DNA of 57,816 nt, filler included, from Circinaria calcarea (Eukaryota): the NCBI GenBank assembly GCA_051942165.1. It is 8 parts of 8 records of this genome, joined end to end, with 100 filler letters (N's around TTAATTAATTAA, not from the genome) between each part and the next. Parts side by side here need not be neighbours in the genome. Positions count along the whole stretch, not along the records: positions 36,224 to 43,358 come from JAVECS010001401.1; 7 more parts are not named here. One strand, given 5' to 3'. Shown one piece after another: positions 530 to 42,346 of this stretch. Both the position numbers and the translations under genes were made by a program. A model generated the notes under the pieces. It searched no databases and was not told where the DNA came from. It worked only from the letters and a program-made list of their open reading frames with translations. The first letter of the stretch is position 1. Each line of letters begins with the position of its first letter.

Positions 530-1524
530 TCACGGTTCATTTGCCAAGCTCTTCTTCATAAACACAGCGGGCAGCGACCAGACCTTCCCGTTCAGATCAG
601 GCTGCATGTAATGCTTCTCCTTGCGCTTGTAGACCCGATACCCCCTTCTCGCGTACCAATCTTGCACAACCACCTGGCTCCCCTATCAGTATTTCAAAAA
701 CGCAGGGACCCCCCCCCCGGTTTTTTTCAAATCGCAAAGAGAGAACGGTGAGGACGTTACCTTGGGCTGCTCTGTCCCGTGAGCATGCCATACTTCCAAA
801 TCGTCGTGCCGCTCCTTGGCCATGGTGTCCAGAGCCAGCGCTCGGGCGTGCAGAGGTGGTTTGACGGCCAGGAGCTCGACTGCGTCCATGGCGGCGGAGC
901 CGAGACCGGTGCTTTGCAGGGCGTGCGAAATGTAGAAGGTGGTGATGCAGTAGAGGTGTTGGGATTTATCTGCGAGGGTGGGGTCGAAGGGGTTTTCCGA
1001 GTCGAGGGAGATGTGGCCGACCGGGATGAAGGGGGGGTGGAGGGAGGGCGTTCTGGGAGCCTGTAGAAGGGACGTTGCGGTGTCGGAGATGGGGTCTTTT
1101 TCTTTGGGGTGTCGAGATGTGTGCTGTGCTAGTTTACCGTCTCGTCCGGGGTCGTCTTGGGACAGTAACTGAGCGGTATGCTGAGCCAGGGCACGAGAAA
1201 CAGCTTTGCATGATGTACTAGAAGAGGACTCGCGTAAAGGGATTTGATGCCGAAAAGGAAAATAGGGAGATTTCAAACTGTAGATATCCTCCTGCTCAAT
1301 CTCTCAACCTAACTGTATAAATCCAGACTTACGATCCAGTGAATGGCCTTTTGGCCTTCTCGCTGCATCACTTTCCATCCTTCGACCAAATTATAGTTCC
1401 ATCCGCAAGCGACACGTTGATTATAGAGCCGCTCGACATGTTCGGCTGATTCTGGGTCCCATGGTACAAGTACAACTGTCGATAAGAGCTGCCGCTCCGG
1501 CTGCACGGTTGCTGAGTTCGTCAT
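530..1524 (-). CDS. GNAT-family acetyltransferase (3 exons)
   Basis: Spliced reading MTNSATVQ...VLVPWDPES...QRVACGW / ...FYISHALQSTGLGSAAM (acetyl-CoA binding motif A, Q-x-x-G-x-G)...LALDT / VVVQDWYARRGYRVYK...VFMKKSLANEP*. GT-AG introns at about 1332-1170 and 760-674; stop TGA at 530-532. Confidence 0.8.
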
Positions 1525-2079
1525 GAGAAAATTTCCCAAGTTGTGTATCAACCAGAGCTATGAGAGGTCTGGAAGTCGCTCTCTCATCTTCTACATGAAC
1601 CTCGACAGTAGTGACTCATAATATACGTTTAGTCAGGAATTGATGACTCGCCACCGTGTGCTGATCCTTCTCGAGTCAAGATAGAAGACATGGATCTTCT
1701 AGTCTTTCCAAGTTTATCTCATCTCTTGAAATTTATGAGGATCAATGGAGTTGCAATGTATAACGGAGGGCTTATAGCTGTTCATCTTGACTTGGAGTTT
1801 TTGTTTCGTGGGAAAGGGTAATTGGGATGATGTCATCAGACATTCGACTCCCTTTGTTGACATTCCAAAGATCACTAAGCTTACTGAAAAGGTTATCGAG
1901 AGGCATGGCTGTTTAGTGTTTCTAAGTTATATGAGAAGTAGCAATAATTGCAATTTGAGCCAAGGCAACTAGCCACTCCGGCCAATTAACTTGGCATGAC
2001 AGTCAGAATATAATATGAAACGTTTGGCCACCGCTGTCCTCTCTTCCAGCAACGGAAACAGGGTTTGATCCGCAGCTAA

Positions 2080-2106
2080 GCCATCAACGCCATCAACGCC
2101 ATCAAC
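2080..2106 (+). repeat. 9-bp tandem repeat (GCCATCAAC)x3, intergenic
   Basis: gccatcaac gccatcaac gccatcaac read directly. Confidence 0.7.
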
Positions 2107-2571
2107 CCAACTGAATGTATTGGGAAAGTAAGAAGCGACAGCCGAAGGTAAGCTTCAGCTGAGGTGGAGCCTCCTTCCTGGAAATCCTAACCAATACCCA
2201 GGACAGAATCGTAGGTCATAGGATAAGTTCTGCCCATACAACTCAAACGGGGTTGAAGAGGTGCAGGTTCTCCCGCCTAGATATAGTACTGGCGTAGATA
2301 TGGGATTTGCTGTGCACAAGGACAACTATTGTTATCTCTCATTGATACACGTAGAATTCATTTGATGAACATACTGGGATATCTGCTTTCTTAAGCCGTA
2401 AAGGCAAAGCTTCCAATTGTCCCCAAGCTGCTGCTGTCACTTTCACTACCACCATTCGAGATGGAGATTCTCTTGGGAGTAGTAGGCGAGCCGAGGTGGT
2501 CCAACGACACCTTATTTGTTCCTTTCCACCCCAAGGGAGTGAACTCGCATTTATTATCCCTCCGAACCACG

Positions 2572-2942
2572 TCACGAGTGCTTTACTCCTCCAATGACAC
2601 TCCCCCTAACTTGAGCCCAGTCGATGCTCGCGTCCAGCTCCTCGTCGACGAGTCCGCACACCGAGACGTTCTCTCCGCGAATGAGATACAGGCCGTGACT
2701 GACTTCGGTACTGGCTTCTTCGTCATCTGGTGGGCGTATAACGCGCTCAATGGTCTGGCTCAGGACAAGATTTGTAAGTTGATCGCAAGACAGAAGGATG
2801 CCAGTCAGCGTTCGGCCGTCCGCTGTGATCACGAGCACCCTCTCTGGTTGAAGTGGGAGTCAGTCAAGAGCTTTAATTTTGGCCACATGTCCATCTGGAG
2901 GGGTTGGTTCGACTTACTATCAACATAAGGTTGGAGCGACAT
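2572..2942 (-). CDS. LSM8: U6 snRNA-associated Sm-like protein Lsm8
   Basis: MSLQPYVD / KRVLVITADGRTLTGILLSCDQLTNLVL...HGLYLIRGENVSVCGLVDEELDASIDWAQVRG: Sm1 and Sm2 motifs plus Lsm8-type C-terminus. One intron with GTAAGT donor. Confidence 0.92.
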
Positions 2943-4303
2943 AGCAATAGGCCCTGGTCGAGTGTTGGCTAACGTATCCGATAGAAGCCCAATCGATCGC
3001 AAGCACTAGCAAAGTTGAATCTCAGATCTGGATGGTCGAGTATCTTGCCATTGCTGTCTAGACTCTGGAGTAGGTATTTTCTTTGCATTTCCTACATCTA
3101 CTCTACTCTGTACCACAAGGTACCGGCGGCCGTGACAGGGCTGTCTAAGCCCGGATAATCAATCTTCCATATCCCGGCATGTCACGACTCCCTCTCATGT
3201 CCTCTCTCTCCCTTTGCGACCTCCGCATAGGGTGTTCTAGCTGATCCAATGCCCCGTACCCTTAGGTTCATATCAGAAGATAGTCTGTGCCAAATCGGAT
3301 CGACTCCTTCCTAATACTAACCATGTCCGAACCGAGGCAAGAAGTATACATAGACCCATCGCTAATATTACCCTATTCCGTATGGCTACAGCACTTATTG
3401 TGTCTTAGTATGCCTCCGTCGATTTGAGACTCGTTTCTCATATCGTATGGATTCTCGCCTCGAACTCTACATTGGTATGGTAGACCCCTTAGTGGGAGAC
3501 GAGGCATTTGGAACATCTTAGCCAGATGTATACTTCTGCTCGCTCTCAGAAATGTCCAAATATTGCAAACTATTTCTACAGCAATGGTTTGAAGGTAAGA
3601 GCCGGGTTTGTGTTCTTGAAGCCGCGGACATTTGTTCAAGCTTGACTCACGTTTCGAATATTCATTTCAATATGAAGGCAAGATCTTTGTCGTTGGAGCT
3701 CTCGAGCGAGATTCGGGACGCTCTGGCCAACATGGCCATATACTTCTACTATTATTATCAAAAGTTTGAAGTTTTGAGTCATCACACCACTCTATTGCTC
3801 GGCTTTTCCTATTCCAAGCGAAGTGCAGATATCCGAACTACCATCCAAGCAAAGCTCTTTTACATACATATCTTGCATTTGATCTGATAAACAAAATCCA
3901 ATTGTTCCGTTGTAGCGGTGGTAATATTATGCTATCTCCGCCCTAGATCAGGCCACTCGGGTTGTTCTTCCACCTCGCGTAAGAATATTCCTGCAGCCTA
4001 CAGGATTAGGATGCTCTAGCCCTATCATCTTACGGATAGCGCCGGACTCAACGGAGCATAGTCGTCGGCGTGAAATTGCTTCGCAGAAGCTGTAGCGGTG
4101 AGAGGCTTAATATGGCAGGTGATCTGTATGTGGCTTGTATGAAGAGTCGGGAACACGGAATGCCATGTCCTCTTGGCATGAATGAGGTCCAGCTTATTAA
4201 CTATAAAGATCTCATATCTGGCATCTGTACTGGCAGGTATAGAGCACAAAACCTCAAGCGCAGTCGAAGCCTTGGCCATCCGACAACGGAAGAAGTTCCA
4301 AGA

Positions 4304-6228
4304 ATGAAGATGAAGATGAATTTCGGACTGTGGGTATGTATTCTATTTACTCCGTAATGCAGACTCTCACATATTCAACAAGGTTTCCCTCGCTTACATC
4401 TCTGCGACCAATGATAGGTCGGCTTGCTGCCTTCGATATACGCGGCCGGCTTCCGAACCGTGGGGTCCTCTGGTTGCGCAGTACAAATGGTCTTTATCCC
4501 GCCCAATACCTCAACCGCGGTTTTCATCGACAATTATCATCCAAACTTCGGTGGGCCCGGCGTCAATCTCCAAACCGGGGCACCTTCACCTACTTCATAC
4601 GTCTACGACGACGGTTCTGGCCTTTCTGTTTTCGGCACAGAATACAATTTAAACACGAACGGTTTACGCAAGTTGCGACCCCAGAGCAATACTTTCTGTT
4701 CTGCTGGATCCTTTTTCAGTGACGGAACTCTTCTCAACATTGCAGGGGCCGAGCCAGGACCAAATGGCGTCGCCCAGGGTTTCGATAAGCTCCGGACGTA
4801 CTCGGCTGGACCATGTTCTGGTACTTGCAAGCAGGACTGGGTCGAGCAAACCGCAAAGTTACAACATACTCGATGGTATCCGACAGCGCAGACACTCACA
4901 GATGGGAGTATTCTAGTGGTTGGGGGCTCAAATGTAGGAGGTTTAGTGTTGAATGAAGCCAACATCAATGTCCCAACCTATGAAATAGTTTACCAGGATG
5001 GACACAAGCCGCCAATTCCCGTGTTACTGCCTATTCTAGAATTTACCGCAGCCCAAAACCTGGTTCCAGGGAAGTCGTACAATCTGTACCCCATACGTGA
5101 GTTACTCCATATACTCTATTATTGAATTAGCTTACCGTGTATGACAGTGCACCTGCTACCGAACCCATCTGCATCCAACGAGATTTTCACCGTAGCTGGG
5201 AACCAGACGATCATCTGGGATTACACTAAGAACACGGCTGTCAAGGCTTTACCAGATACACCTCTACAGCCTCGCACATTTCCATCCTCTGCAACATCAG
5301 TTCTACTTCCACTTATTGCTCCGGACTATGACCCTACAGTACTAGTGTGTGGGGGTTCATCCGGTGACATACCTGACCCCAGGGCCTTGGATGATTGTTA
5401 TACCATTAACCCGCTCGACCCTTCACCGGTATGGGAATCTACGGACGTAATGCCGAACGGTCCACAAACAATGTCTGACGGAATCCTGCTACCAGATGGC
5501 ACTGTCTTGATACTAAATGGAGGAAGGGTTGGCTCAGGTGGTGGGTTTATGGCTGACGATCCTGTTTTCCAACCTATATTATATAATTCTACCGCACCTG
5601 CTGGGGATCGATTCACGACTCTGCCCGGAACAACAATTCCTCGCCTATATCATTCTACGGCTACTCTACTCCCATCTGGCGAGGTACTAGTTGCTGGATC
5701 TAATCCTGCTGTTGGGTACAGCGCGGACGGCAAAGTTCCCGGCGGGTAAGCTTACAAAATACCTCTCACTTTATCTGTTTCTGACTGAAACCTCATAGTT
5801 GGCCCATATTTGGCAACAACGGTCATCAGTGCGCTCTACATCAACAACAAAGGCAGACGTCTACCTATCCAACCGAGTACCGTGTCGAGATTTTCTCTCC
5901 TCCATACATATCAGCTAACGTCCGTCCAATCATCGCAAGTCCGCCTATGATTGGATACAATTCGACGTTCCAGGTCGAGGCAACGCTCTCTGATAGATCT
6001 GTGAACGGCAAGACTCAGGTGGTTCTTTCACACCCAGGGTTTCATACGCATGGAGTTGCAATGGGACAGAGAATGGTGATGATGGAACACACTACCGTAG
6101 CCAACTCCAACTCGATTAGTGTTACGTCGCCGGGTAATGCGAGTGTGATGCCTCCTGGGGTATACCTCCTATTTGTGGTTAACAACGGGGTGCCTTCGGA
6201 AGGCGTGTGGATTAAGTTGACTAGCTGA
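4304..6228 (+). CDS. Secreted copper radical oxidase, CAZy AA5 (glyoxal oxidase-like)
   Basis: Predicted signal peptide MKMKMNFGLW/VGLLPSIYAA across intron 4334-4417. Radical-copper site motifs NTFCSAG, RWYPT, RLYHST and GFHTHG, plus C-terminal PPGVYLLFVVNNGVPS (galactose/glyoxal oxidase Ig-like domain). Further introns near 5097-5147 and 5746-5798. Confidence 0.88.
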
Positions 6229-7154
6229 TTTTCGAGAGTGCTATTGCTTCTCCTACTATGTAATGTAATGTTATAATTTATGTCCACTGTCCCAGTATCT
6301 ATAATTACCAGTTTTTCATGCATTACGGTCGAATCATTCTTAAATGATCGATAAACAATTCGACTATACGATAGCACCTGCAGGTGATGACGCGTGACGC
6401 TTGCACTTTCTTATCCTCTTATGCATGGGGTGGTTAAATGCCGATTGCTACTTTAATCCCTCCTCGCGAACATTATGCTCATATCCGCAGCTGTGTATGT
6501 AGAACCTCGAATAAAGTGTGTGGACTGTATTCCGAGTCCCAACGGATGCCATCGGTTTCCTCATCTCCACCCCAACCTTCTTCACGTCTTCTTTCCACCT
6601 TCCCTTTCTCTCCGCAACCCGCCCCGCAAAAACAACGACTTTCCAAACCAAAAAGTGAGCAAGTGATCCCCCCCTCCTTCCTCCAACAAAGAGACCAAGG
6701 GAGCCTGAACTTCCGAGGTCCTCCTGACTCGAGAGTCCTAACGTAGCGAGGTAGCTTAGAACAGCTACCTCTCGTTCCAAAAAAAAAAAAAAAAAAAAAA
6801 AGGAGAGAGAGAGAGTGCGTGTGTGTCTCAATCTCACGCACCATCTTCCCCCCCGTACATATATCTCTGGCAATATCCCCCGCCCCCCTTTCCGACAAAC
6901 TCTTCGTCGGGGAAACCCATGTCCTCAAATCCCAAGATGGGGACTATGGCAATTCCCCCTCCCTCAATCCATTTCCCTGAACCCCCCGGGGGAGGAAGGG
7001 TTAAAAACCGAAACCGGGGAGCACTAAGGCTCTGTCTGGGATTCGTAATGTGAAAAAAAAGGGATCGGAGAGGGGCCTGCAATTTCCATATTCGATCGGG
7101 TTCGTTTTTTGACAAGGTGGTTGAGGGGTTAGAAGCGGCGGGGCAGGGGAGGAG

Positions 7155-21743: not shown

Positions 21744-22420
21744 CCGCCTCGACGACCACCACCTCTTTGGCGGCCGAACTGTCATCAGTCAGATACTAGG
21801 CAGGCATTGTTGAGAGTATGGACGTACTGACTCCCTTGCGCCCGCGGCTCTTTGTTCTGCTCATGATGTCTACAGCGACTGGCAAGTCTAATCCATGGAC
21901 TTGAGGGAGAGCACGTGTCTAGCCTTGTCGGGTGAAATACTCGGTAGAATAGATTCAGTAGGTACAGTCTTTTAGTACGATCCCTTGTCCCCCACTAGAA
22001 TAGCAGCGCTGGTGCGGAATCTTCCCAAAAGCCCCCTAATATAATCTACGAAGTGTCCTGATGCTACGGGGCAAATGGGCAGCATAGATGAGAGGAGTAT
22101 TGTCCCGATGAGCTACAATGCTATTCGTTTCGCTTTGCTTCGGCTTCACGCCTTTTACCTGGTTGGATCCGATGATCCTTCAACCGGGACCCCGCAGCTG
22201 ACTTTACTCGGAGCTTCACGGTAACTGAATGGGAAGGAGAATCTTATAAATCAGATCTCCCTTCTTATCTTTTACTGTCGTCTTTATCATCCTCAAGCCC
22301 TGTTCATTACTCTTCTTTAATTCCCTTTACGTGACTGTCATCATTTACGATACCTTTGATAGACATTCTCCCAGTCAAGAAGAGCCCTATACTCACTTGA
22401 AAGACTGAAAGATCTCAATC

Positions 22421-23407
22421 ATGGCACCACCATCCGCCACCTCGACCGAGACCCAAACCAATGGCTCCTCCAAGCCCTCGACCTTGGCTCCCCTCGAACC
22501 GGGCCTGAGCGAGAAGAAAGCCAAGGTACAGATGCCCAAGTTCCCGGGACCCCGGAAGTTTGAAGACAAGTACGAAGAGCGTGAATATCTCAAAGGCCGT
22601 CTCGCCGCTGCATTTCGCATCTTCGCCAAGTATGGCTTCGACGAAGGGGTTGCCGGGCACATCACTCTTCGTGATCCGGTCGACCCCTCCACTTTCTGGG
22701 TGAACCCTTTTGGAGTTGCCTTTGGCTTGATCAAGAAGAGCGACCTAATCCAAGTGGACCACGATGGAAATGTCATCGATGGGGGACCAGTCCGCCTGCT
22801 CAACGCCGCAGCCTTCATGATCCACAGTGCCATCCACTCAGCGAGACCAGATGTGATCTGTGCAGCCCACAGTCACAGCATCTACGGCCGATCCTTTTGC
22901 ACACTTGGACGGGAACTTGACATCATCACCCAAGACTCTTGTGCTTTCTACAATGTACGGTTGCCCCCCTCCTTTCTTCTTAAGAAACTGAACGCCCCTC
23001 CCCGCTCCCTTCCAAGGACCTTTACTAACCCCCCTTACTCTTCCCGTTAGGACCACGTCCTCTACAAATCTTTCAACGGCATCGTCCTTGCCGAAGCCGA
23101 AGGCCACGCAATCGCCTCCTGCCTCTCCTCCAAAAAGGCCGCCCTGCTGCAGAACCACGGCCTCCTAACCGTCGGCCAAACCATCGAAGAAGCCGTGTTC
23201 TGGTTCGTCAGCCTGGAGAAATGCTGCCACGCGCAGCTGATGGCGGACGCTGCCGCGACGGGCCGCGGCGGGCAGACGGTCAAAATTGGGGAGGTGGAGG
23301 CGGCGGACACGCATAAGACGCTCGGGGTTCCGATGGCGGGCTGGTTCAATGCGAAGCCGTTGTTTGACACAATTGAGAAGACGGAAGGGGCGGATTATTT
23401 GCAGTGA
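22421..23407 (+). CDS. Class II aldolase/adducin-domain protein (Mug14-like)
   Basis: RLAAAFRIF...EGVAGHITLRDP...FWVNPFG...FMIHSAIH...AAHSHS (zinc His residues)...LLQNHGLLTVG. Intron at about 22956-23050. Confidence 0.9.
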
Positions 23408-23930
23408 GTGGAGATGGTATGGTGGTGAAGCGGCTGTTAGCTTCGATTAGCATCTAGCTAGCTCGATAGCTTTGGCAATCTCGCGCCCACTACAACAGCG
23501 ATTCTTCAACACCACACGCCCTCTCCTGCTCCTTAACGTCTGACATTTTCTCCAAACTCTTCCCTCCCTTCAATTCCAACCCCAACGCCGACCCCCAAAT
23601 CCCAAATCTCAGTAGAGAACGAGCCATAAAGCCACTAGCTCTCTCCCTCGGCTCAAAGAAACCCTCCCCCTCCTCCCCTCCCTTTCTCACACCCGAGCTA
23701 TAAGCAGATCTCATGCAAAGTACAACAAGTAACCTGACATGACACAGGCGAGGCAAGGGAGAGGGAGAGGGGCTTTTAGATTATAGATTTCCGGGTTTTC
23801 GGGTTTTCGGGGTTGGGGGGCATAGAGGAGAGGTAGATGGTAGATAATAGATGTTAGAGAGAGGGGGGAAGTACTGTACAGTACTGTACGTAATATGATG
23901 GTCATTTAGGTTGGTAAGATCCGACGGTCA

Positions 23931-24002
23931 GGGGATTTGGAATTTGGGATTTGGGATTTAGGATTTGGAATTTGGGGTTGGGGAATTGAGGAATTGGAAT
24001 TG
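23931..24002 (+). repeat. Degenerate 7-bp G-rich tandem repeat (GGRATTT/GGAATT units)
   Basis: ggggattt ggaattt gggattt gggattt aggattt ggaattt ggggtt ggggaatt gaggaatt ggaatt, lying between convergent genes. Confidence 0.7.
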
Positions 24003-24244
24003 TGAGGGGAAAGGGGTGGGGCGAGAGTGCTGCTCTATCGATCTAGGTCTAGGACTTTTGCAGGGTTTTTAGATTGTTGGAAAGGCCTTGGAACAGATTC
24101 AGTGGGCTAGAGTCCAGAGAGACGAGGCAGCTGGAAGGGAAAGAATGATGATAGTAAACTACGTCAGTCATCCGATCCCGTGCCCATTTTAGGAATTTAT
24201 TTTTTGCATTGCTTGTTGTGGATGCGTGCAAAAGGGGATGAGAG

Positions 24245-25219
24245 CTAGCGCAAAGGCTTAAACACCTTGTCGAAGCTCTTCCTCTCCCGAAAGATATTCC
24301 ACCACGTCTTCACCTTATTCCCCACACGAAAGCCCGGCACCGATTTCTGCAGGTGAGCCTCCAATATCGACCAGTCAGCGGGGTCCGACGTCCCCACCGA
24401 CATCAACAAATGGGACACCCAAGGAACCATGTGGATATCCGCCAGCGTGACTTCTTTCCCTGCGGCGTAGGGGAGTTTGATCGTCTTGTCGAGCTCGGCC
24501 ATACCCTCGGCGAACTTCTCATATTTGACTAGGGTTTCTTTGAAGAAGTCGTCGTGTTCCTTGGACGGACCACTGGTGAAGATGTCGTTCAGGGCACCGT
24601 TTTCTCTTACTTTGGCGGCATAGAATTGGTTCTCCGGCTGTTCGGAAGAGTATTTCTGTAGCCTTTCTTGACGGACGGAGAGAAATGACGGAATGAATTC
24701 TGGCTTTGATGCGAGTTCTTCTTCGTCACGAGCGGTGAGGAGAACCAGGCTGGTATCCAAGTCCATAGAGTGGACAAGCTTGACCAACTTTTCCATTGTT
24801 TTGGTGGTTTCTGGGTCCGAGGGGATTAGCTTTGGAACATTGGCTGCAGTAGAGTTGCGGTCTAGGAATTCCAAAATGTCAGTGGAGTCGGTGAATATCT
24901 TATCCTCCCACGGGACCGATAGAGAAGGGATCGTCCCGTTTGGGTTAACTTTCAGATACTCGGGATCGAAGTTGTCCGCATTGACTGTTGAGTTGATCAG
25001 CAATATCTTCTTTCGAGGGTAGGGGAGAAGTACTAAAGTTGACCTCGACCTCTTCGACGTCGTCGGCCACGTATCCCTTTTCAACCAGGCCCAAATGCGG
25101 TACGCCCGCCCATAGGGAGGCACCAGAGGTGTATAGGATCATCTAGTACAGTTGGACCCGTGTCAGTGTTCCACCGAGTACGTTGGAGAGGACTTGTTTA
25201 CCTTGTCCTTGGAACCCAT
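24245..25219 (-). CDS. Glutathione S-transferase-fold protein
   Basis: MGSKDK / MILYTSGASLWAGVPHLGLVEKGY / NFDPEYLKVNPNGTIPSL (GST-N NPxGxVP) ...DSTDILEFLD and C-terminal PYAAGKEVTLADIHMVPW (GST-C N-cap). Two introns. Confidence 0.82.
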
Positions 25220-26062
25220 TTTGAGTACCTGTGAATTGAGGCTGTTGGCGGTTTTAATTCAGAATTACCAGCTCAGTGGTGAACAGGGTTGCAGAGGAAG
25301 AGAAGGACAGTTGAGATGCAAAGACTCTCTACCATAACAGAGTCTTATACTCCGGAAGCATATGGCCTGCATGACGAATGGCCAGCAATCCATTACGAGA
25401 ACAGAGGTATTCACGGGCTAATACACGACCTGCATGCTCATCTTCGGGGAACATTGGGAGTGGGGTAAACTGTAATCATCGATGCGTGCCCTTGAGGGCG
25501 ATTCGTATGGGGTAACATTGATGCATTGACAATGTAAGCCTCGCCAATTCTCCCGCCTTCGGGTGGAATTGCTTTTGAACAACTCCGTACGTCTGGCAAG
25601 ATTGTGTCGATGGATGCAGGGCCTTGACAGTTCTAGTCCATCAAGGACTGCTCTTCATCTTTGGTCAACTGAGTGCTCGTCTTGGACACTGCGACCCGTA
25701 CTGCATCTGTAGTGGAAATAATAAGTACGGAGTATCCTTCGGCTAATTCAGGGTCTCCTCCGATCTACGATCACGTGCGTCAATTTCAGGGGTTTACCAG
25801 TAGGGGTTTAGCAGTAGGGGTTTAGGGCTGAGATGTCCAAGCTCGCGCGAAAAGTCTCTTAGTCTATTTTTTTTTAACGTGTAGGGACGTTTGCATGTTC
25901 GAGACGACACGCAGAGAGAGAGAGTAAAGCAAAGCATCGCTAAGGAACATTGAGCCTGCCCCCAATCATCGAACCTGACCTTCATTCCACCTGCCTTGGC
26001 TTGTTTCCTTTTCAACCTCATCCATCCATCTACTCCTCTTGATCCAGCCTTCCACATAGTCC

Positions 26063-28301
26063 ATGTTGACCGCTTTACGGAGCGGGAGGACATCTCTCGG
26101 TCGATCCTTGTTTGCACTTGCAGCACCTTCTTCTTCCAAGTGTGCGGTGTCGTCTTGGATAATATGTCGGGAGCGACAGCCTGTGCAGCCGAAGCTCATA
26201 GCCAGAACTCTACATTCCTCTCCATTATGGAGGAGATCCGCTACAGCGGCAGCTGAGGTCGAGGCAGACGAGAACCTTATCGAAGGCCAAATTGATGAAG
26301 GAATCGGCTCCCAAAGACCTCTCTCAGACTCTGAGATTAACGCATCTCTCAAACGTGGCCCGGTCACCAGGTTCCGGGAATTGGCCGAGAGGGGCATGGT
26401 ATCCCCGACAGTCGTCAAAACCCTGACGGAAGATATGCGCCTAGAAACCATGACACAAGTCCAGAGCCTTACGATTAATGAGACGTTAAAAGGCATCGAT
26501 GTGTATGCAATGGTACTCCCGCTCCAAACCTCTCTCAGGCACTGATATGACTTGTAGACTAGCCCAAGCTCGTACCGGAACGGGAAAGACTCTCGCATTC
26601 CTCATCCCAGTCTTACAAAACATCATCAGTTATGACCCGAGTCTTGAAGCCCGTGGAAAGTACGGACGAAACCGATCCTCCCCTACCGATATCCGAGCAA
26701 TCATAATATCGCCCACCCGGGAACTGGCAGAGCAAATCGCAGTGGAGGCACGAAAGGTGGTCAAAAATACTGGAGTCATCGTACAGACTGCCGTGGGTGG
26801 ATCTGCGAAAGCGTATGGTCTTCGGAAGATCAGGACCGAAGGCTGCCATATCTTGATCGGTACCCCTGGCCGCCTCAACGACATCCTCTCGGATCCTTAC
26901 AGTGAGGTGCGAGCACCAAATCTGAGTGCCTTTGTTCTAGATGAAGCAGACCGGTTGCTCGATCAGGGATTCGCGCCCGACATTGAGGCCATTCAGAATC
27001 TTTTGCCAAACCGACAGGAAGTTGACAGGCAAACCCTTTTGTTCTCTGCTACTGTACCCCAAGGGGTGATGCAAATTGTCAAGCGAACCATGAAGCCGCA
27101 TTTTGAGTTTGTACGGACGGTACAAGAAGGAGAGCAGCAGACTCACGAAAGAGTGCCACAGAAGGTGGTTGAAGTACGAGGGTTTGAAAACGTGATGCCG
27201 GCCCTTTTGGAGCTATGCCAACGTGAACTCGCACGCAAAGACGCGGAGCCGTTCAAAGCTATTGTGTATTTCAATGCTACAGCCGAAGTTACTCTTGCAG
27301 CATCTACGTTTGAAAACCTGGCCAATCCCGGTACGCGTCGGTTCGAGCAACACCCACTTTATCCTGCTCAAATCATCGAGATGCATGCCCGACTGTCACA
27401 GGACCAGCGAACCAGAGCCGCAGATACCTTTCGACGTGCCAAAACCGGTATCATGTTCTCATCCGACGTAACTGCTCGCGGTATGGATTTCCCCAATGTG
27501 ACGCATGTCATTCAAGTGGGCGTTCCTGGAGATAGAGATACGTACATTCATCGTATCGGACGAACTGCTCGGGGGGATAAGAAAGGAGAAGGCTGGCTTT
27601 TGATTACAGAAATGGAAACTCGTGAAGTCAAGAGCAGACTTTACAAGCTTCCTCTCCAACCCGATCAATCGCTGGAAACCGCCAAAGTCGATATGACCCA
27701 AGATGCCCAATTACCCGAGTACGTCGCGAGAACGTTAACGCAGGTTGTCAACGCAACGAAGATGGTGAAAATATCAGTGAAATCTGCAGCGTATCTAGCA
27801 GCATTTGGAATCTACCAATGGATTCCAAAGAAGCAGCAACTCGTGGATTCGATGAACAATCGCGCCAAGTTTGGCTGGAGCATGGAGCGACCACCTGCCA
27901 TACCGTCGGGACTAGCACAGAAACTTGGTCTTAGCCGTTTAACAGGCATCAACACTGGACCGATGGAATATGAGGTAGAAAGCGCCATTTCTCCTGGACG
28001 TCAGTTTGGCCCCTCTGGTTTCAACCGTGATCGAGATGGTTCTTCTTCGGGTGGGTTCTCCAGAGGTGGTCGTCCCTCTGGCGGCTTTTCAAGAGACAGT
28101 GGTCGCTCAAGGGGAGGGTTTGGCGGTGGTACGCGTGATGGAGGTGAGGGGCGGTCCTCTTACGGTGGAGGGCGATCCTCTTACGGTGAGGGGCGGTCTT
28201 CCTACAGTGGAGGGCGACCTTCTTACGGTGAGGGCCGATCATCATCTAATGGTAATCGCGATAGGAGTTCTCTATCACGTTTCTTTGACCGGGACCAGTG
28301 A
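26063..28301 (+). CDS. MSS116: Mitochondrial DEAD-box RNA helicase, Mss116/CYT-19 family
   Basis: Mitochondrial presequence MLTALRSGRTSLGRSL, Q motif MTQVQ, ARTGTGKT, PTRELA, TPGRL, DEAD, SAT, ARGMDFP, HRIGRTAR and a basic G/R-rich tail. One intron near 26502-26558. Confidence 0.88.
28143..28247 (+). repeat. Five in-frame 21-bp tandem repeats encoding (G/S)(E/G)GR(S/P)SY in the helicase tail
   Basis: ggtgaggggcggtcctcttac / ggtggagggcgatcctcttac / ggtgaggggcggtcttcctac / agtggagggcgaccttcttac / ggtgagggccgatcatcatct. Confidence 0.9.
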
Positions 28302-28886
28302 TCATTCGGTGGACGGGATAGCAGAGAGGCAGGTCGAGGTGCACGCGGCGAAGATGGCCGGCGCGAGTCGACGATATATCTGATCGGTTTACCTCTGCAA
28401 TGGCTCGTCGCTTTACTCTACTTTCTCCGTCCTCTTAATTTACCAATGTATATTATCCTCTGATTTCCCCTCCATCTCCTCCCTCGGGCGGCGACACTCC
28501 TCTTTGTCATGCCTGGGCAGCTGTATCCCTATAGGATATCGAGGAGCGTTTGTAGTTGCGAGGAGCGGAAAGCGTGTTGTCGAAATTGTGGGGGGGGGGA
28601 GAATTGCATATAGACGGTGCTTAAAGATCAGGAGGTTCCCTAGAAAGTCTCAGGATTGCTTTTTATTTTAAAAACAATAGTAATACACCCACATTCTACT
28701 CTCGTCTGTCTACTCTCATCCAAACCCCTAAACAAAAAGAGGTTCCTTAGAATTCCCGTAGATGGTAGTTTTTTTTTGGGGGGGGGGGGGCTTTTCTCCC
28801 GCAAGTCGGAGACATCCCTCATTCCGTAAAGAACATGCCTCTCCCCTCTTGTAAGATTATAAGCTACCCCCCCCCCCCCCCCCCCC

Positions 28887-34409: not shown

Positions 34410-35056
34410 GGGCCTGTTCGGCGACCCCCGATTATTGGAATCGATTTCCAAAATCGATTTTGGACCCTGAAAATCGCCAGGAGAGTGTTCGGTGACAGCG
34501 ATTTTTGCGATTTTGAAAATCGATTTCAATAATCGATTTTGCAAACACATACAAATTTAGTGCCTTGGCATAAGTAGGTCGGGACCTACTTCTAGCGATT
34601 ATTGCTAGCGATTCTGCGTAAAATACGCAATTAAATACACAACCAAATGGATGATATAGATGAATTCTATGCAGAATAAGGCCTTCCAGTAAGGTTTATT
34701 CCATGACCAGAGTCCAATTGAGCTTATCCACGGAAGGGTTCTTAGGGGAGGAAGGCCTAGAATACACACCGGGGGTGGAAGGGGTCATAGGGGTGGAAGC
34801 CATAATAATTAAGCCGGGTTATGTATAGCTTCAAGACGTGAGCGATAGAAATTTTATGTATTTTGTTATAGATTCAGGATTTTCCCAATGTAAATTGGTA
34901 AATTTACTAGTGATTAGCCTATTATTTAACCCTTGCAAGCGGGGAATCGCAGCTTCCATAATCGCTCCAGAATCGTGCAACCGAACACCTTTTCAAAATC
35001 GGCGAAAATCGATTTCGGAAATCGATTGCAATAATCGGGGGTCGCCGAACAGGCCC
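34410..35056. mobile_element. Non-autonomous PIF/Harbinger element (Tourist-like MITE), 647 bp
   Basis: TIR GGGCCTGTTCGGCGACCCCCGATTATTG is perfect over 28 bp and 50/52 over 52 bp. TTA direct repeat on both flanks (34407-34409, 35057-35059). AT-rich interior with repeated AATCGATTT and no transposase ORF. Confidence 0.92.
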
Positions 35057-36223: not shown

Positions 36224-36655
36224 AGCTCACTCGCCGTGAGGCTGATTCTGCCAATCGGTTATCACCGCCTCCATTGTGCGCTATATGGATTTCTGGATAA
36301 CCTTCGACGGTTGGTCCTACTGGGTGTATGCTGAATCTGCCAAAGTAGCTGCAGTACTCGAGGACTTGTGGGACTGGGAGGTCCACAAAGTCTTGGTTCC
36401 GGAAGACGACCACCTTGCGTTGGGCAACGAGCAGAGCGAGCTCATTCTTTCCCCTGTCTGATAGGGAGTCGATTTGTACACCAAGAACCTCTAAGCCCAT
36501 TGCAGGCGTAATGTGGCTTATTTTCGTCTCCTAACTTAAAAAATGAGGGAAGGTTGGACCGGCATCCTTGCCGTGCTCGTAATACTCGAAAGGTTTAGGA
36601 GTGGCAATTTTCTGGTTAGGAGTCCACGTTGGTAGGTAGTTCGTTGTCTCAGAAG
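36224..36655 (-). pseudogene. TauD/TfdA-family 2-oxoglutarate dioxygenase (Jlp1-like), interrupted by the transposon and carrying an internal stop
   Basis: NYLPTWTPNQK...FEYYEHGKDA...FLS*ETKISHITPAMGLEVLGVQI...KNELALLVAQRKVVVFRNQDF...IHP...YPEIH. In-frame TAG at 36531-36533; the frame runs into the element terminus at 36656. Confidence 0.8.
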
Positions 36656-36764
36656 CTCAGACTGCTTTTGCTTCGCTGCCGCGTATTTTTCGGAATGGCT
36701 GTATATAGTTAGTAGATGCTAAAAATAGCGTGCGCGCGAAGCGCAGTCTGAGGTATTTGTCCAC
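36656..36764. repeat. Left terminal inverted repeat / fold-back hairpin
   Basis: CTCAGACTGC (36656-36665) pairs with GCAGTCTGAG (36743-36752). Inner GCTTCGC/GCGAAGC and TATTTTT/AAAAATA also pair. Followed by TTTGTCCAC at 36756-36764. Confidence 0.85.
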
Positions 36765-36846
36765 CTTTTTTGGTGGGGGTTACAACATTGTTATATGAGA
36801 AATCGTTTTTTGAAAATTAATCAACAACCAATTAATAGAATTAAAC

Positions 36847-39512
36847 ATGGCTTATAATACCCGTTCTAAACGTTCTTTCGAACAATCTATAAGAGCGGAT
36901 TCTTCAAATACGCCCGCGTCGAGGCCTCAGAAGCGCTGCCGTTCTGGTTCAGCTCCTTTATCTCCGACTTTCACCCCTTATCAACCTGCCTCCACCCCTT
37001 CCCAGCGACCTCAATATAGACCCTACATGTCCTCCAGGCAAAAGGCAGACGATATACTGAAGTATATGCATAACCAGCATAGATGGACGGTGAGGGATTT
37101 GATCAGAAGCCTTGCGTGCGACTCCCCCGAAGAATCGAAAAGTTATGTTGGGTATAGCAAGGAAGACAGAACGGAAAGAGTTATTGAAGCAATATGGGGC
37201 CATACAGAAGTTCTGAATGAGTTTGAAAAGCACACTACTTTTCCTGGGCTGAGCACGTACAGCAGAGAATTGGAGGCGTTGGAAAATACCATTTTATTTA
37301 ATAAATGGAGAAATACAAGTGATATCGATCAATTGGATTTCTCTTATGCATTTAAAGATCTTGAACGCCTTGCTCCTATGCTTCTGCAGTTACTGAAAGC
37401 TCTTGTTGCTCCTGCCCGTGAGCGGAGAGACCGGCCAACTCGCCAGCTTGAATCTATAGAAGGTCGATTTGTTCTTATATTTTCAATTCTTTGCTTTACC
37501 CGTCGTCGAAATACCTGCGATAACATCCCAAAGTTACTTGGTTTATACCTTCAGTCAATGGGTGTTAAAAGACGGGTCCTGCAGGTTTTGGCTGGCTTAG
37601 GTATCTGCGAGAGCTATCATACCATCAATCATTTGAACGATAATATCGCCGCTGAAGCTACCACTCGTTTGGCTGATGCAGGCACTCGTTCCGATACAGT
37701 CATTGTATACGACAACTTCGATTACGAGGAGCGTGTTCAACATCAACGAACCGGTGACCATGGGGGTATGAGAAGCGTCACGAGTGGGTTGCTTCTGCAT
37801 GGAACCCTACCTCCGGAAGGGCTACGGCAAGATATGCTACGTGAGGAGGTCCCGTTGAAGCTGAAGGATATCATCAATGCGCCGGGCAATCAGTATGATG
37901 ATATTCAGAAGAAGGTAAGCTGAAAATGTGGATCTTCTGTATGGATCTCATACAGAACTTCTGTATGGCATATGCTAATAAGAATTAGTAGATTTCAGTT
38001 TATTTCATCGCTCAAGCGCTTCAAAAGCAGCACCCAAAGGCTATCAAGCGGTTGTTCGTAGATGCCGAATACCCTGCAATGCCTTGCCTCGATGTGCTGG
38101 ACGCCCGCCAAACCCATCAGTTCTCCCTCGGTCCTATACTGAGTAACGAGGGGACTATTCAGGGGACCTATGAGGTGCTTGCAACGATCTTCAAAGACCA
38201 GCTGCATTGCAGGACTGAGGACTTTGAGAACAGGCTGTGGCTAGTGTATGGAGATCAGAAAACGGCATCTAATATCCGGAGTGTGATCAATCAACGAAGG
38301 GAGGCATCATATGGGTTTGAGCGTCACAATTGGGTATTGCCTCTTTCGGCATTCTTCCACCTTCGCCAAACATACCTATGGATGATGCAGGCGGCTCATT
38401 TTGGCGGTGAGAATCAGAACTCGCCATCGACGTTATATCATAACATGAACTTCTGGAATCGGCATCATATTCCTGCAGTCAAGGGGCCATTCCATCACGT
38501 TGAGGAGCTCGTTATGCATAGCTTTGAGGCCCGCATTGTGGCATTTTTCTACACTGTCATACAGAAGGCTAATGTCGGTATCGACTCTGCGGAAATTATT
38601 GAAGAATACCTTAACACGGTGACTACCGAACGGTATTTGGAGATAGTGGAAGATGTGTATTGTATAGCGTTTAGTAAAGAAGTGCAGCAACCGGCTATCC
38701 AAAAGAATCATGAACAAGAAGATGAAGAATTTTCAAATCATATTCGATACCTTCAGCACGCCGAGACCTATGCTATTCTGAAATACGCTACGAAGCATGG
38801 CGATATTGGCCTTATCGGGCGAGCAATCGATCGTTGTTGTGTATACTTTCATGGATCTAATCAAACCAAATACGCCCATGAAATGCTTCTATACAAACGA
38901 CTTCTTGCTACTGATGCGGCTACTCCGGAGCTGAAACGAGCTATTCTAGCCAATGGTCTTGTCAATACACGAGGCAAAAAGGATAGCTTCGTGGCGATCG
39001 ATTTGATCAACGAACAGCTAAATCTTACGTTGAAACAAATTCTTTGGGCACGTCGAACATCCACCTATGGTATAGATAAGCTATTCAGTCGTACCGCCTT
39101 AACGTCTAGCTACTGCGGCTCCTTGAAAGAATGCCTGGAGGCGGAATTCGGTGAACATACCAATGCAGAACATACAACCAAGGCATCGAGCATTGACGTA
39201 CGGAATCTTGCCTACGAAATGGCTAAAGGTTCAATCAAACGCCAGCTCAGTGGTAGAACCGTCACGTTCAAAGCCCCGCATCTCGTGGTGCTTGGAAGCC
39301 ATCGGCTTGTAACCAAATCGTTGGCAGAGTTCAATCAAAGAGTTGTATATATGGCCGATCAATTGGCGCCTACTCTGAGTGATGATATTGAGGACGATGG
39401 GGCAGGGGAGTTACCAGATGGTAGCTTTCCTTTAGATCTACAGGTAAGTTAATCCATATATTCTACGTTATATGCTATATCCTAACAAACGAGTTAGCCA
39501 GAGGAAGAATAA
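36847..39512 (+). CDS. Academ-type (DUF6589-like) DDE transposase, about 844 aa, 3 exons
   Basis: Exons 36847-37914, 37992-39443 and 39498-39512 (GTAAG donors, CTAA branch sites, TAG acceptors, frames consistent). Candidate catalytic motifs IVYDNFD, LVYGDQKT, AFFHLR and DLINEQLN. Confidence 0.8.
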
Positions 39513-39563
39513 TGCGGGTTATTACAGAACTTCTGTATGCGAACCTCTTTTATATACATGTTA

Positions 39564-41657
39564 TTATTGCATCTGATTGCTATTGCCTATACCTCTGCTA
39601 TTACCATTCTCACCCAACGGCAGTCGCTTTCTACCAGCTCCTTTGCCTTTCGTATTGGCTTTGCCGCCGTTCTTTGCCTCCTCTTTCTTCCTATCATCAA
39701 CGGCCTCGCTGAAAGCTTTTTTGGACGCCTGGAAAAGCTTCTCGTAGCACTGCTCACGCCACTCCCATTGCCCTACTCCTGTGAGCTCTTTGACATCGTC
39801 GATTTTGCTTGTTATAGCACTGCTGGCGACCTGATCTAGAATATCATCTGGCACCAATGCCTCAGGTATGCAATTGCCAAATATGGTGTTTTGGAATTCC
39901 ATCGCTGCAATTTCCTCGCGCCATTCTCTCAACTTCTTTTGTATGGGCTCTGTAAGTTCGCTCGTTTTATATACACGTTTTTTCTTGCTCGGCTTAGCTA
40001 GAAGCTCCGATGGGCAAGAAAGCAAATGCATAGACTGGCAGCGATTACAGCAGATAACTGGGGTACCTCGCTCTGGGCCTTCATTCAGATAATCCAGAAT
40101 AATCTTTCGAATACAGCCCGTACTGTTGAACAGATCATACAGAACTTCTGATAAGGCTTTCCGCTTTTCAGCTTCTGTTTTGGTTATTTTCTTGGCTTTG
40201 GCTTTGGCTTCTGTACCCTGTGAAGCAGCAGTATCACCGTCAGGGGTACCAGCACGAGAGATTGACTGGTCAGTAGCCTCGCTATCTGATAGAACCAATT
40301 GCTGTGATAGCTGACTAGGTCGTATAGATTGACTAGACTGACTAGAAAGCTTTGATCTCCTGGGCTTTTTGGGCTGAATCTCTTGTGAACCCCATAGCCA
40401 TTGTTCCGCCAGTAGTATGGCTTCACCAGTCCTATCAGAACTTCTGGCAGCACGTCCAAATCGTTGCCATAAAATTTCGATAGCTTCCTCTCGCTCTCCA
40501 GGCAACCGCCATACGACAACCCTATCGATATCGGATAGATCAACACCCATCCCTAAGCTATCGGTGGCAAATGCGATTCGATAAGCCGATTGCTCGCCAG
40601 GCTTTTTAAACTCTTGCATAAACGCTATCTTATCGACATCGGCTATAGTGGAATGGTAGGCTGCAGTGGCTGCTCTGATCGTCGTATTGGTATAACCCCG
40701 CCTGCTTAGCCATTGCCTGACTGCAGCTAACGCATTAGACATTATAACTTTGGACTCGAAATATATAATAGTCTTTGGAATACTGCATAATGGCCGAAGG
40801 CCCGCAGGGGTTACTTCAATAACAGCGTCTATAACGAAATATAGATCTGTGAAAGTCTTGGTCTCACCCGGCGTGATAGGCTTAATCAAAATGGAAATTT
40901 CAGGACGATCAACAGAAGTTCTGATAAGCTTAACGTCTTTTTGGAAGCCCACGCTCTCTTTCACTACCCGCAAAGTCTCTGCAGGCAGGGTCGCTGATGT
41001 CCCAAACCAAGGCACCCCGGCACCAAGGAATCGACGCAAAGAGGCCAGCTGTCCGTACGGCTTCCGGAAATCACGGCCCCATTGTTTCACACAATGAAGT
41101 TCATCTACAACGACCAGGCCTACCCGAGACTTGAAGCCAGGGTCTTTGGCAATGCTACTGAATTGGACGTTGACGGCAAGCTCCGGGCTTAACAGAATGT
41201 GAGTAAATTCGCATTTTCGAATCTGTTCGAGGATCTTCTGACTGATATGGTCTTTATCTAGCAAACATGGCTTGCAGTTAGGCAGCTGCTGCATCTTAGC
41301 ATGCTGTTCTTGACCCAATGCCGTCAACGGAATGATCATAATGGTGATACTGTTCCTGCGAAGGGCGGATACGGCCTGTGGAATCATGCTTTTGCCGAAG
41401 GACGTTTTGGCTATCAGAATAAGATCCTTTCGGTTATATATCAACGTTCTGATAGCCTCAATCTGTTCCGGCTTGCCCTTATAGGGGTATATCCTCTCAA
41501 TGCCTTCTGCGACACGTTCTGTCTGTTTTTCGACCCCATTGTTCTTTGCTGCATCCAGTGTATTCAAGAACGCTTGCCATTCATTAATAGGCGGTTCAAC
41601 CCTTTCCTCTCCTGCGCGTTGACTCCACCGTTTGCGCCACTTCCTATCGAAAGCCAT
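39564..41657 (-). CDS. RecQ-type superfamily 2 DNA helicase (transposon-encoded)
   Basis: Motif I AKTSFGKS, II VVDELHCV followed by the RecQ aromatic loop WGRDFRKPY, III SAT, V ATDSLGMGVD, VI QRFGRAAR, zinc module CIR...CCNRC and HRDC-like LREWREE. First in-frame ATG is at 41657; the frame stays open to 41879, so the true start is uncertain. Confidence 0.9.
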   Translation of the reverse strand: MAFDRKWRKRWSQRAGEERVEPPINEWQAFLNTLDAAKNNGVEKQTERVAEGIERIYPYKGKPEQIEAIRTLIYNRKDLILIAKTSFGKSMIPQAVSALRRNSITIMIIPLTALGQEQHAKMQQLPNCKPCLLDKDHISQKILEQIRKCEFTHILLSPELAVNVQFSSIAKDPGFKSRVGLVVVDELHCVKQWGRDFRKPYGQLASLRRFLGAGVPWFGTSATLPAETLRVVKESVGFQKDVKLIRTSVDRPEISILIKPITPGETKTFTDLYFVIDAVIEVTPAGLRPLCSIPKTIIYFESKVIMSNALAAVRQWLSRRGYTNTTIRAATAAYHSTIADVDKIAFMQEFKKPGEQSAYRIAFATDSLGMGVDLSDIDRVVVWRLPGEREEAIEILWQRFGRAARSSDRTGEAILLAEQWLWGSQEIQPKKPRRSKLSSQSSQSIRPSQLSQQLVLSDSEATDQSISRAGTPDGDTAASQGTEAKAKAKKITKTEAEKRKALSEVLYDLFNSTGCIRKIILDYLNEGPERGTPVICCNRCQSMHLLSCPSELLAKPSKKKRVYKTSELTEPIQKKLREWREEIAAMEFQNTIFGNCIPEALVPDDILDQVASSAITSKIDDVKELTGVGQWEWREQCYEKLFQASKKAFSEAVDDRKKEEAKNGGKANTKGKGAGRKRLPLGENGNSRGIGNSNQMQ

Positions 41658-41679
41658 AGAGAAAAGAGGGTCGGCGATT

Positions 41680-41746
41680 TTCTGTATGGGGGATCTTCTG
41701 TATGGAAGTGCAGAAGTTCTGTATGGGAAACCGAAGTTCTGTATGG
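41680..41746 (+). repeat. Four tandem TTCTGTATGG motifs just upstream of the helicase ATG
   Basis: Copies at 41680, 41696, 41717 and 41737 (spacing 16, 21, 20 bp). Confidence 0.9.
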
Positions 41747-42067
41747 AGAACAAAGGGTCTGGTAATTGTTCTGAGGGGTTCAATAGCGATTTACCGCAAG
41801 TATAGTCGTGCAATGGGTAGTTGGAGGGGTTTACACTAAACCGTGATCTTTGGTTATTAGCGTTTTGTTCAACAACCACTGGGTGGAATTAATTACTTAA
41901 AGGGTTATATTACAGAGCAGAGTATTTAGAAGAGAATATAAGAGCGGATTTAATTAATTATGCGTGGTGGTTACGTGGTTGATAAAAATCATAATTTGGG
42001 AGCGCGGGGATGTCGCGTGGTTTTGTATGTAAATTGCTAACAAATGTCGCGAGGTCCCATATATTCC

Positions 42068-42162
42068 GTGGACAAAACTCTCAGACTTCTTTCAAAAAAG
42101 GTTTACATAATATCGGATCGGAATAACCATTTTACGCGGAGCTAGTACGAAAGAAGTCTGAG
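42068..42162. repeat. Right terminal inverted repeat / fold-back hairpin
   Basis: GTGGACAAA at 42068-42076. CTCAGACTTCTTTC (42080-42093) is perfectly complementary to GAAAGAAGTCTGAG (42149-42162). Confidence 0.85.
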
Positions 42163-42346
42163 GCCCCCGGAGCTTGCGGAGGTGGCACTGAGGCAATCGT
42201 CGTCATTCGTAGACAGCATGACTAAGCTCTTTCTTCTCGCAACTGCCCCTCCTCAACCCCACATCCTATTACTTCCTACATCTCTTTTACACGTGTGAAT
42301 AACTCCTTCTCGGTATATAATTGCTTCATTGTACATCGCCTCAGCT

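Follow-up and report, generated by a model that had tools for sequence, protein, structure and literature searches.

Organization of the locus

The window analysed here, a stretch of 57,816 bases from Circinaria calcarea, is comprised of eight contigs of ~7.1 kb each, joined by N44-ttaattaattaa-N44 spacers. Its sixth contig (36224-43358) contains a complete DNA transposon of 5,553 bp (36644..42196), with ends predicted from related elements and confirmed by loose ends of other copies in a metagenome. This transposon holds 4,632 bp of coding and 921 bp of non-coding DNA, and it carries a 9-bp word, TTCTGTATG/CATACAGAA, in 11 exact copies distributed over both strands.

Two convergent genes occupy most of the element. 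The transposase gene, on the plus strand, starts with exon 1 (36847..37914, 356 amino acids (aa)), which encodes a disordered N-terminus, an all-helical region and the first catalytic Asp (DNFD). Intron 1 (37915..37991, 77 nt, GTAAGC...TAG) includes three half-sites of the word, and exon 2 (37992..39446, 485 aa) encodes a DUF6589 domain (Pfam E 2.9e-75) with the GDQ Asp and the catalytic Glu. In the inferred gene model, intron 2 (39447-39497) is followed by exon 3 (39498..39512), which adds PEEE and the stop codon (39510-39512). DUF6589 alone was found in the transposase by Pfam, the N-terminal region being without a match. On the minus strand, a single exon (39564..41657, stop codon at 39564-39566) encodes a RecQ-like superfamily 2 (SF2) helicase of 697 aa. 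Pfam detects its DEAD (E 4.6e-15) and Helicase_C (E 1.4e-9) domains and a sub-threshold RecQ_Zn_bind (17.3 bits, cut-off 25; E 0.0079), with no match to RQC or HRDC; sources label relatives of this protein "superfamily II DNA helicase RecQ".

A word private to the element

All exact copies fall between 37201 and 41745, with starts at 37201, 37935, 37949, 37959, 38558, 39531, 40136, 41680, 41696, 41717 and 41737; positions and strands agree with those listed in a first-pass annotation of this DNA. When the window was shuffled 100 times with dinucleotides preserved, the word was present 0.41 times on average and at most 5 times, and none of the 100 shuffles reached 11. The remaining seven contigs (~ 50 kb), used as background for word counts, contain no copy, in accordance with the same annotation, which had not seen the word there; likewise, none was found in the ~ 52 kb of the window that lie outside the 5.5-kb element. 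A census of k-mers in each contig identified CATACAGAA, with 11 occurrences, as the commonest non-homopolymer 9-mer of any contig. Elsewhere the top non-homopolymer 9-mer reaches 3-4 in six contigs, and 9 in contig 5, where it is an unrelated word. If up to one mismatch is allowed, the window yields 24 matches, 17 of them in the sixth contig (11 exact and 6 differing at one position) and 7 in the rest.

The word had also been described as often palindromic. Paired sites do exist, including the perfect palindrome at 37949-37967 (9+1+9), the one at 39523-39537 (7+1+7) within the 51 bp that separate the two stop codons, and the near-palindromes in coding DNA at 37201-37219 and 40136-40154, all as proposed; however, only one full palindrome is perfect, and the others match in 4-8 of 9 positions in the weaker half. 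The core palindrome CAGAASTTCTG was found in the window seven times exactly and once with one mismatch, always between 37205 and 41741. When the 11 sites are aligned, their similarity extends past the word to an asymmetric consensus, GA(A/T)(C/G)TTCTGTATG(G); position -4 is G in 10 of them, position -3 is A in 10, and position +9 is G in 7. Even those sites that appear single thus retain a remnant of a second half.

In a scan of viral contigs with the 15-mer, at least 120 loci gave one match each, a result put down to chance. Four look-alikes were considered and dropped as non-matching or untestable: the LexA box, HMG TR-boxes, GATA sites (TTCTGATAA variants), and heat-shock elements, for which GAAnnTTC is required.

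Position and origin of the copies

According to the first-pass annotation, the word is spread through the body of the element and not at its ends. The ends are indeed free of copies over 557 bp on the left and 451 bp on the right, but the distribution in between is uneven: 8 of the 11 copies reside in the 921 non-coding bp (8.7 per kb), and only 3 in the 4,632 bp of coding DNA (0.65 per kb).

The non-coding copies comprise three half-sites in intron 1 (37935..37967, including the perfect 19-bp palindrome), one exact copy in the gap between the stop codons, as part of a motif pair (39521..39539), and four direct half-sites on the plus strand (41680..41745), spaced by 16, 21 and 20 bp and located 23-88 bp upstream of the helicase ATG. 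Part of this upstream array was recognized by TRF as a 20-bp tandem array, and GGATCTTCTGTATGG is common to intron 1 and the helicase upstream region. Additional information comes from X1, a metagenome and the one public run found to contain related sequence (share 0.08), compared at 80% stringency. One X1 contig, 95% identical, is without exactly 24 nt between two direct half-sites of intron 1, from which it follows that the intronic triple grew via a small duplication.

In coding DNA, three exact copies are accompanied by two further core palindromes. Transposase exon 1 carries the pair CATACAGAA-G-TTCTGAATG (37201..37219) and exon 2 a single half-site on the minus strand (38558..38566). The helicase gene carries a pair at 40136..40154, where the protein reads LSEVLYD, and the core palindromes CAGAACTTCTG at 40436..40446 (ARSSD) and CAGAAGTTCTG at 40913..40923 (IRTSVD), the latter formed by synonymous codons only. 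These copies occupy three different codon phases, which excludes a protein motif as their explanation, and in each gene half-sites point both ways.

All five coding sites lie in gap-free alignments, and in the related sequences L001, L003, L004, L042 and P0001-P0014 the codons differ and the motif is missing. The peptide IRTSVD at 40913 is identical to that of L003, and the codons AGA ACT TCT GTT stand in place of CGA ACA TCT GTG, synonymous changes that create CAGAACTTCTG. At 40136 the residues themselves are altered, LSEVLYD replacing LPDALYK or LPEEVY of relatives. Judged from these alignments, the coding copies arose by point substitutions absent from the nearest relatives, and the pattern as a whole indicates that the word was selected as DNA, not as protein or RNA.

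Words in related elements

For comparison, 80 related loci (655 kb) were collected from metagenome contigs by a transposase search. The helicase gene is located downstream of the transposase in 39 of the 80, and in all 39 the two genes are convergent. Relationships were approximated by a quick IQ-TREE run on 65 rows, with 16 short loci excluded and the careful search unfinished.

The window's word is not enriched in this sample, which holds three single TTCTGTATG copies against ~ 5 expected. The nearest relatives, L001-L003, share 61-62% transposase identity with the window and form a clade with it that has 100% support. No private word was found in them by k-mer counts and a consensus check, and TTCTGTATG therefore arose on the window's own branch. 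Candidates considered in these relatives were rejected: AGAAGCTGATG turned out to be a 36-bp tandem repeat in coding DNA, and ATTTAATG and GCTGTCAA show no shared extended consensus. No recurrent palindromes were detected in the other sub-families, most of which offer nothing past the terminal motif. A possible third case, besides the window element and the clade described below, is L040 (1317-4334), in which TCTTSAAG occurs nine times, dispersed through both genes; with a highest 8-mer count of 7, where shuffles reach up to 5, the enrichment is borderline, and L040 may be only a weak example. The TCTTSAAG core is an inside-out form of the AGAA-S-TTCT core of the window. The suggestion that each family has its own internal motif thus holds for the clade with ATATCCGC, and perhaps for L040, but fails for most relatives, the nearest included.

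The word ATATCCGC characterizes a clade with 100% support and 25 rows, whose elements are ~ 12 kb long and contain ~ 3 copies per kb (L019, L045-L047, L052, L053, L056, L058, L059, L061, L063, L064, L066-L068, L070-L074, L076-L078 and L080). The 12-kb L019 has 39 copies, compared with a shuffle maximum of 6; L047 has 34 in its element of 12,060 bp and 0 in 9,359 bp of flank, and L072 has 29 inside the element and 1 outside. Copies are present in both orientations, also within one gene, and in both coding and non-coding DNA. They are sometimes paired as GCGGATAT-N3/4-ATATCCGC, and one such pair is positioned just inside the left terminal repeat. At 73% identity between elements, 15 of 39 copies are intact, compared with 21% of random 8-mers, and at 93% identity 32 of 39, compared with 58%. 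The same design is independently repeated with another word in this sister clade.

Two paralogous Cys-rich open reading frames (ORFs) of ~ 155 aa, with six Cys spaced CxxCx6Cx14CxxCx6C, are a feature of the ATATCCGC clade only. In L019, both are on the minus strand (4165-4632 and 6122-6607). They occur in 20 of the 80 loci, 19 of which have at least 8 motif copies; of the five motif-rich loci in which no such ORF was found, four extend for less than 2 kb past the transposase. The six Cys are conserved in intact members, L019 being intact. Most copies are broken by stops or by Cys-to-Tyr transitions, which resembles damage by repeat-induced point mutation (RIP). Homologues of the ORFs come from the same transposon family only, all without names, and a profile search of the PDB returned nothing. 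Nine of 14 members match Zn_clus at E ≤ 0.1 (best 0.0035), in the second half of the profile only, and a DUF3716 match is sub-threshold. We treat the ORF as a possible zinc-cluster DNA binder, a lead and not a result; with the ORFs confined to the ATATCCGC clade, a putative dedicated binder exists where the motif holds a CGG/CCG triplet. No Cys-rich ORF was found in the window (best tblastn E 0.57).

Ends, probable class and putative deletion derivatives

Relatives in which both ends are available have the terminal consensus TTACCTCAG-N-CTCAG(A/G)C. By analogy, the window element starts at 36644 (TTGTCTCAGAAGCTCAGAC) and finishes at 42196 (...CTGAGGCAA), and X1 contigs, in which unlike flanks start exactly before 36644 and behind 42196, confirm the predicted ends. 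The left terminal inverted repeat, TTGTCTCAGAAGCTCAGACT (36644..36663, plus strand), was read from the element together with the consensus of relatives. The right terminal region (42155..42196, minus strand), ending in ...CTGAGGCAA, has ~ 25 extra bases between its two CTCAG units compared to relatives. Subterminal palindromic modules are located on the left (CTCAGACT...AGTCTGAG, 36656..36752) and on the right (CTCAGACTTCTTTC...GAAAGAAGTCTGAG, 42080..42162). At each end the terminal word thus stands in an inverted pair (CTCAGACT...AGTCTGAG), 65-97 bp apart, so both termini could fold back on themselves. This arrangement is conserved across sub-families and is present at both ends of L008 (15/94 and 6200/6283), L012 and L033. 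An Rfam scan gave, at the right terminal hairpin, only a mir-1 match below threshold.

A target duplication of 9 bp, GCCCCCTGA, was found in the relative L047, and the flanks of L072, GACCGAACG and GACTAAATA, differ by transitions only. For the window copy no target duplication was found, as its flanks, ggtagttcg and tcgtcgtca, differ. The element is bordered on the left by a TauD-like gene on the minus strand and on the right by an acyl-CoA-binding-protein gene, both named from ORF translations.

According to excerpts of two papers (PMC10045372, PMC10799480), AcademH elements combine a DDE transposase with an SF2 (DEAD/Helicase_C) helicase and terminal inverted repeats, and they are found in fungi, low in copy number and associated with 9-10-bp target duplications. 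The window element has the transposase, the helicase and the terminal repeats in common with them, and differs in that the copy is without a target duplication, the 9-bp duplication being that of L047. By its two proteins, terminal repeats and fungal host, together with the 9-bp duplication of its relative L047, the element likely belongs to the AcademH type, an assignment which is short of proven and was made from descriptions in citing papers.

Sequence depth in X1 is 92 and 132 at the termini and 0-31 internally, and X1 contigs are joined across internal deletions at 36742-42089, 37008-40691, 37816-40923 and 39527-41754. This suggests many deletion derivatives, or else related families with common ends. 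The contig that joins 36742 to 42089, a single one in the metagenome, retains both ends and has zero motif copies, which hints that the motif is dispensable in cis for mobility.

A direct, not inverted, repeat of ~ 80 bp was also observed, with one copy across the transposase start codon (36821-36901) and the other (41869-41950) 212-293 bp upstream of the helicase ATG; the two are 79-81% identical, in two blocks. In L003, the nearest full-length relative, three tandem repeats of ~ 175 bp (5640-6110) lie directly upstream of the helicase gene, and a comparable position in L025 is taken by ~ 220-bp repeats. With the 20-bp motif array of the window at this position too, a tandem repeat preceding the helicase seems to be a recurring feature of the family.

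A candidate protein-binding array

We propose, with moderate confidence, that the word is a duplex-DNA site for a sequence-specific protein, and that the array controls the expression or the chromatin of the element itself. Binding and its effect are suggested by the privacy of the word, its enrichment, its independence of strand and frame, its origin by substitution, and recurrence of the design in the sister clade. GA(A/T)(C/G)TTCTGTATG(G) would be recognized on double-stranded DNA in sites that are single, combined as inverted pairs one helical turn apart, or placed in a short tandem array. An AcademH-type sub-lineage would have gathered about a dozen copies, some through small duplications in non-coding DNA and others through point substitutions in its own coding DNA, and the array would mark the autonomous element as "self" for the binder. 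Control of transcription or chromatin would be its likeliest job, with the promoter or 5' leader of the helicase as the most direct target. The concentration in non-coding DNA and the tandem array upstream of the helicase ATG have the layout of regulatory protein sites. The array is probably no cis requirement for cutting and pasting. The binder may be one of the element's two proteins (transposase or helicase), a host protein, or a factor encoded elsewhere.

The best-surviving alternative, which we regard as unlikely, is that the sites are accessory cis elements of transposition, either internal sites bound by the transposase or docking points of the RecQ-like helicase; they would assist pairing of the ends or unwinding of the element, or confer immunity against self-insertion. 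The element does encode a helicase, which may have a role in transposition, and in the ATATCCGC clade the private word also forms a palindrome at positions typical of transposase-binding sites, ~ 20 bp inward of the left terminal repeat and close to the right end. In addition, the half-site and the left terminal repeat of the window have CAGAAG in common. On the other hand, the window termini are copy-free over the distances given above, the terminal repeat CTCAG-N-CTCAGAC is conserved across sub-families in which private words differ or are absent, and the nearest relatives manage with the same two proteins and no such sites. The X1 contig with ends alone adds to this, although as one contig it is weak evidence, and to the same weak extent it speaks against transpososome assembly or helicase loading, roles that the first-pass annotation had offered.

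Still less probable, in our estimation, is that the word is functionless and merely tolerated, having spread by slippage or duplication and by short-patch templated repair between imperfect copies. Non-coding copies have the look of duplications (the shared GGATCTTCTGTATGG and the 20-bp tandem array), the 24-nt difference in the sister X1 contig fits as well, and two coding sites are 77% identical over 30 nt, beyond the motif alone. However, copies in coding DNA need several coordinated substitutions at non-homologous places, in three frames and with no indels, and some of these substitutions altered conserved residues. Furthermore, the second clade keeps its other word at ~ 3 per kb, above background, across elements 70-73% identical.

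We consider it very improbable that the word acts in RNA, as a hairpin or a splice-signal-like element in splicing of intron 1, in the helicase 5' leader or in 3'-end formation of the convergent transcripts: CATACAG/ is acceptor-like and /GTATGG donor-like, copies are located in the intron, the shared 3' region and just upstream of the ATG, a retained intron 1 would give a truncated protein, and the palindrome would be in both convergent transcripts, but single half-sites occur in both orientations per gene, which RNA elements rarely tolerate, the stem has only 7 bp, Rfam has no match at the motif, and ATATCCGC is orientation-free within one gene.

Several observations weigh against the proposed protein-binding array. 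The ORF scan found two genes only in the window element, with no dedicated binder gene. The model of the transposase N-terminal region (predicted local distance difference test, pLDDT, 67) gave 0 Foldseek matches at E ≤ 0.001, with no DNA-binding domain that could be named, and this region is 50% identical to that of the motif-free L003; nothing in the proteins therefore visibly co-varies with the word. Exact 8-mer maxima are within the shuffle range in L003, L008, L012, L016, L017, L022-L024, L030, L031, L033 and L036-L038, and since most sub-families are without a private word, the family as such needs no array. In the ATATCCGC clade, the motif-rich L052 gave no match to the Cys-rich ORF despite available room, and the best Pfam Zn_clus score of the ORF, 17.8 bits, is below the cut-off of 21. 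Finally, the evidence for TTCTGTATG comes from one copy of the window's sub-lineage, and that of an ends-only derivative from a single metagenome contig at 80% stringency.

Comparison with known recognition systems

The closest working analogy for the window array is the VANC/VANDAL system. According to Hosaka et al. 2017 (PMC5735166) on VANC/VANDAL21 of Arabidopsis, a transposon family has 8-9-bp words of its own (YAGTATTAY or AGTTGTCC), which build up in non-coding tandem repeats and attract an anti-silencing protein encoded by the element, and VANC21 sites are reported to be absent from coding regions. Like these, the window word is mainly non-coding, partly tandem, lineage-specific, and different between related families. 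In contrast to VANC21 sites, however, it has three exact and two core copies in coding DNA. The chemistry of fungal silencing, with RIP and histone H3 lysine 9 trimethylation (H3K9me3), also differs. Furthermore, VANDAL elements are Mutator-like and encode VANC, while the window element has a DUF6589 transposase and a helicase, and no third gene, which argues against its belonging to the VANC/VANDAL type. The VANC-like option raised in the first-pass annotation thus remains the best analogy as regards a private, tandem, non-coding word, but not as regards an accessory DNA-binding protein encoded by the transposon.

En/Spm (12-bp motifs of TnpA) and Ac also have short words repeated in either direction, to which a protein of the element binds that regulates the element's promoter as well; these sites are clustered within a few hundred bp of the ends. 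The window element differs from them in its word-free ends (557 and 451 bp) and in the copies carried by the gene body. In the abstract of a 2026 preprint (bioRxiv 10.64898/2026.08.24.746577), transposases themselves are argued to be sequence-specific transcription regulators, and TnpA is linked to transposases.

For the Cys-rich ORFs, a likeness can be seen with REP9 of Zymoseptoria tritici, which excerpts of PMC8232023 describe as a DNA transposon of the IS3EU type that carries accessory genes for two DUF3716 proteins. A pair of small Cys-rich accessory genes, with weak DUF3716/Zn_clus matches in our case, is common to REP9 and the ATATCCGC clade. The transposase superfamily is another one, and the likeness concerns that clade and not the window element; no motif array of REP9 is reported in these excerpts.

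More tentatively, AcademH-type fungal transposons may repeatedly evolve a self-recognition code, that is, a private word distributed element-wide, with synonymous and tolerated changes placing it in coding DNA as well, and read by a dedicated factor, which in one clade would be the pair of element-encoded Cys-rich proteins; we find this broader proposal possible, albeit doubtful. If true, an element would activate or protect its own copies only, and a fungal counterpart of plant VANC/VANDAL anti-silencing would exist, with an independent origin and in a different transposon superfamily. Recognition words for regulation of own copies have been documented in plants (VANDAL/VANC, Spm/TnpA). In the literature searched, we found no family-specific recognition words for fungi or for Academ-type elements, the search not having included the founding paper on the AcademH lineage of Academ DNA transposons (Kojima 2020, Mob DNA 11:15).

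One family here offers two natural test cases, one with a candidate element-encoded binder and the other without an extra gene, as well as sister lineages that may serve as negative controls. Copies in coding DNA indicate that codon choice, and even the choice of amino acids, can give way to selection for a DNA word in a transposon's genes. If a binder is found, the word and the protein would make a compact module for sequence-specific targeting and a way to study how fungal transposons evade or attract silencing.

Transposase family and fold

The transposase family includes 1,228 representatives at E ≤ 0.001, in which the DNFD Asp, the GDQ Asp and the Glu are conserved; invariant residues of exon 2 among relatives are D88, D337 and E341, and D88 and E341 make up a conserved DDE triad with the DNFD Asp of exon 1. 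At the position of intron 1, L001 has a 54-nt gap, and L005, L007 and L008 have a continuous ORF. With intron 1 retained, the frame ends after three codons (KKVS followed by a stop; 37915-37923), which would give a 359-aa N-terminal protein in which the catalytic core is incomplete. Truncated repressors are known in P elements, to which such an intron-retained protein is formally similar.

An AlphaFold model (pLDDT 78) represents P0134, a full-length homologue, and not the window protein itself. Compared with the P-element transposase it reaches Z 10.5 over 353-357 residues, with a root-mean-square deviation of 5.8-6.1. Hermes (hAT) follows with Z 9.0-9.6, ISCth4 (IS256) with 8.8 and RAG1 with ~ 6, and unrelated rows are at or below 3.7. 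Foldseek E-values are weak (0.007-0.03), with identity of ~ 10%. Going by this model, the transposase combines a DDE core of the RNase-H-like type and an insertion domain made of helices, and the solved structures of P element, Hermes, ISCth4 and RAG1 share with P0134 a fold class, as distinct from family membership.

Repeats in other contigs

The k-mer tables of contigs 1 (1-7154) and 4 (21744-28886) are dominated by long homopolymer runs, A9 being counted 15 times in the former and C9 19 times in the latter. In contig 5, AAATCGATT/AATCGATTT occurs nine times at 34439-35027, grouped into three tight clusters; an ORF begins near 35035, just downstream of them. The word resembles a repeat of a palindromic AATCGATT site in a promoter region and has no relation to the transposon.

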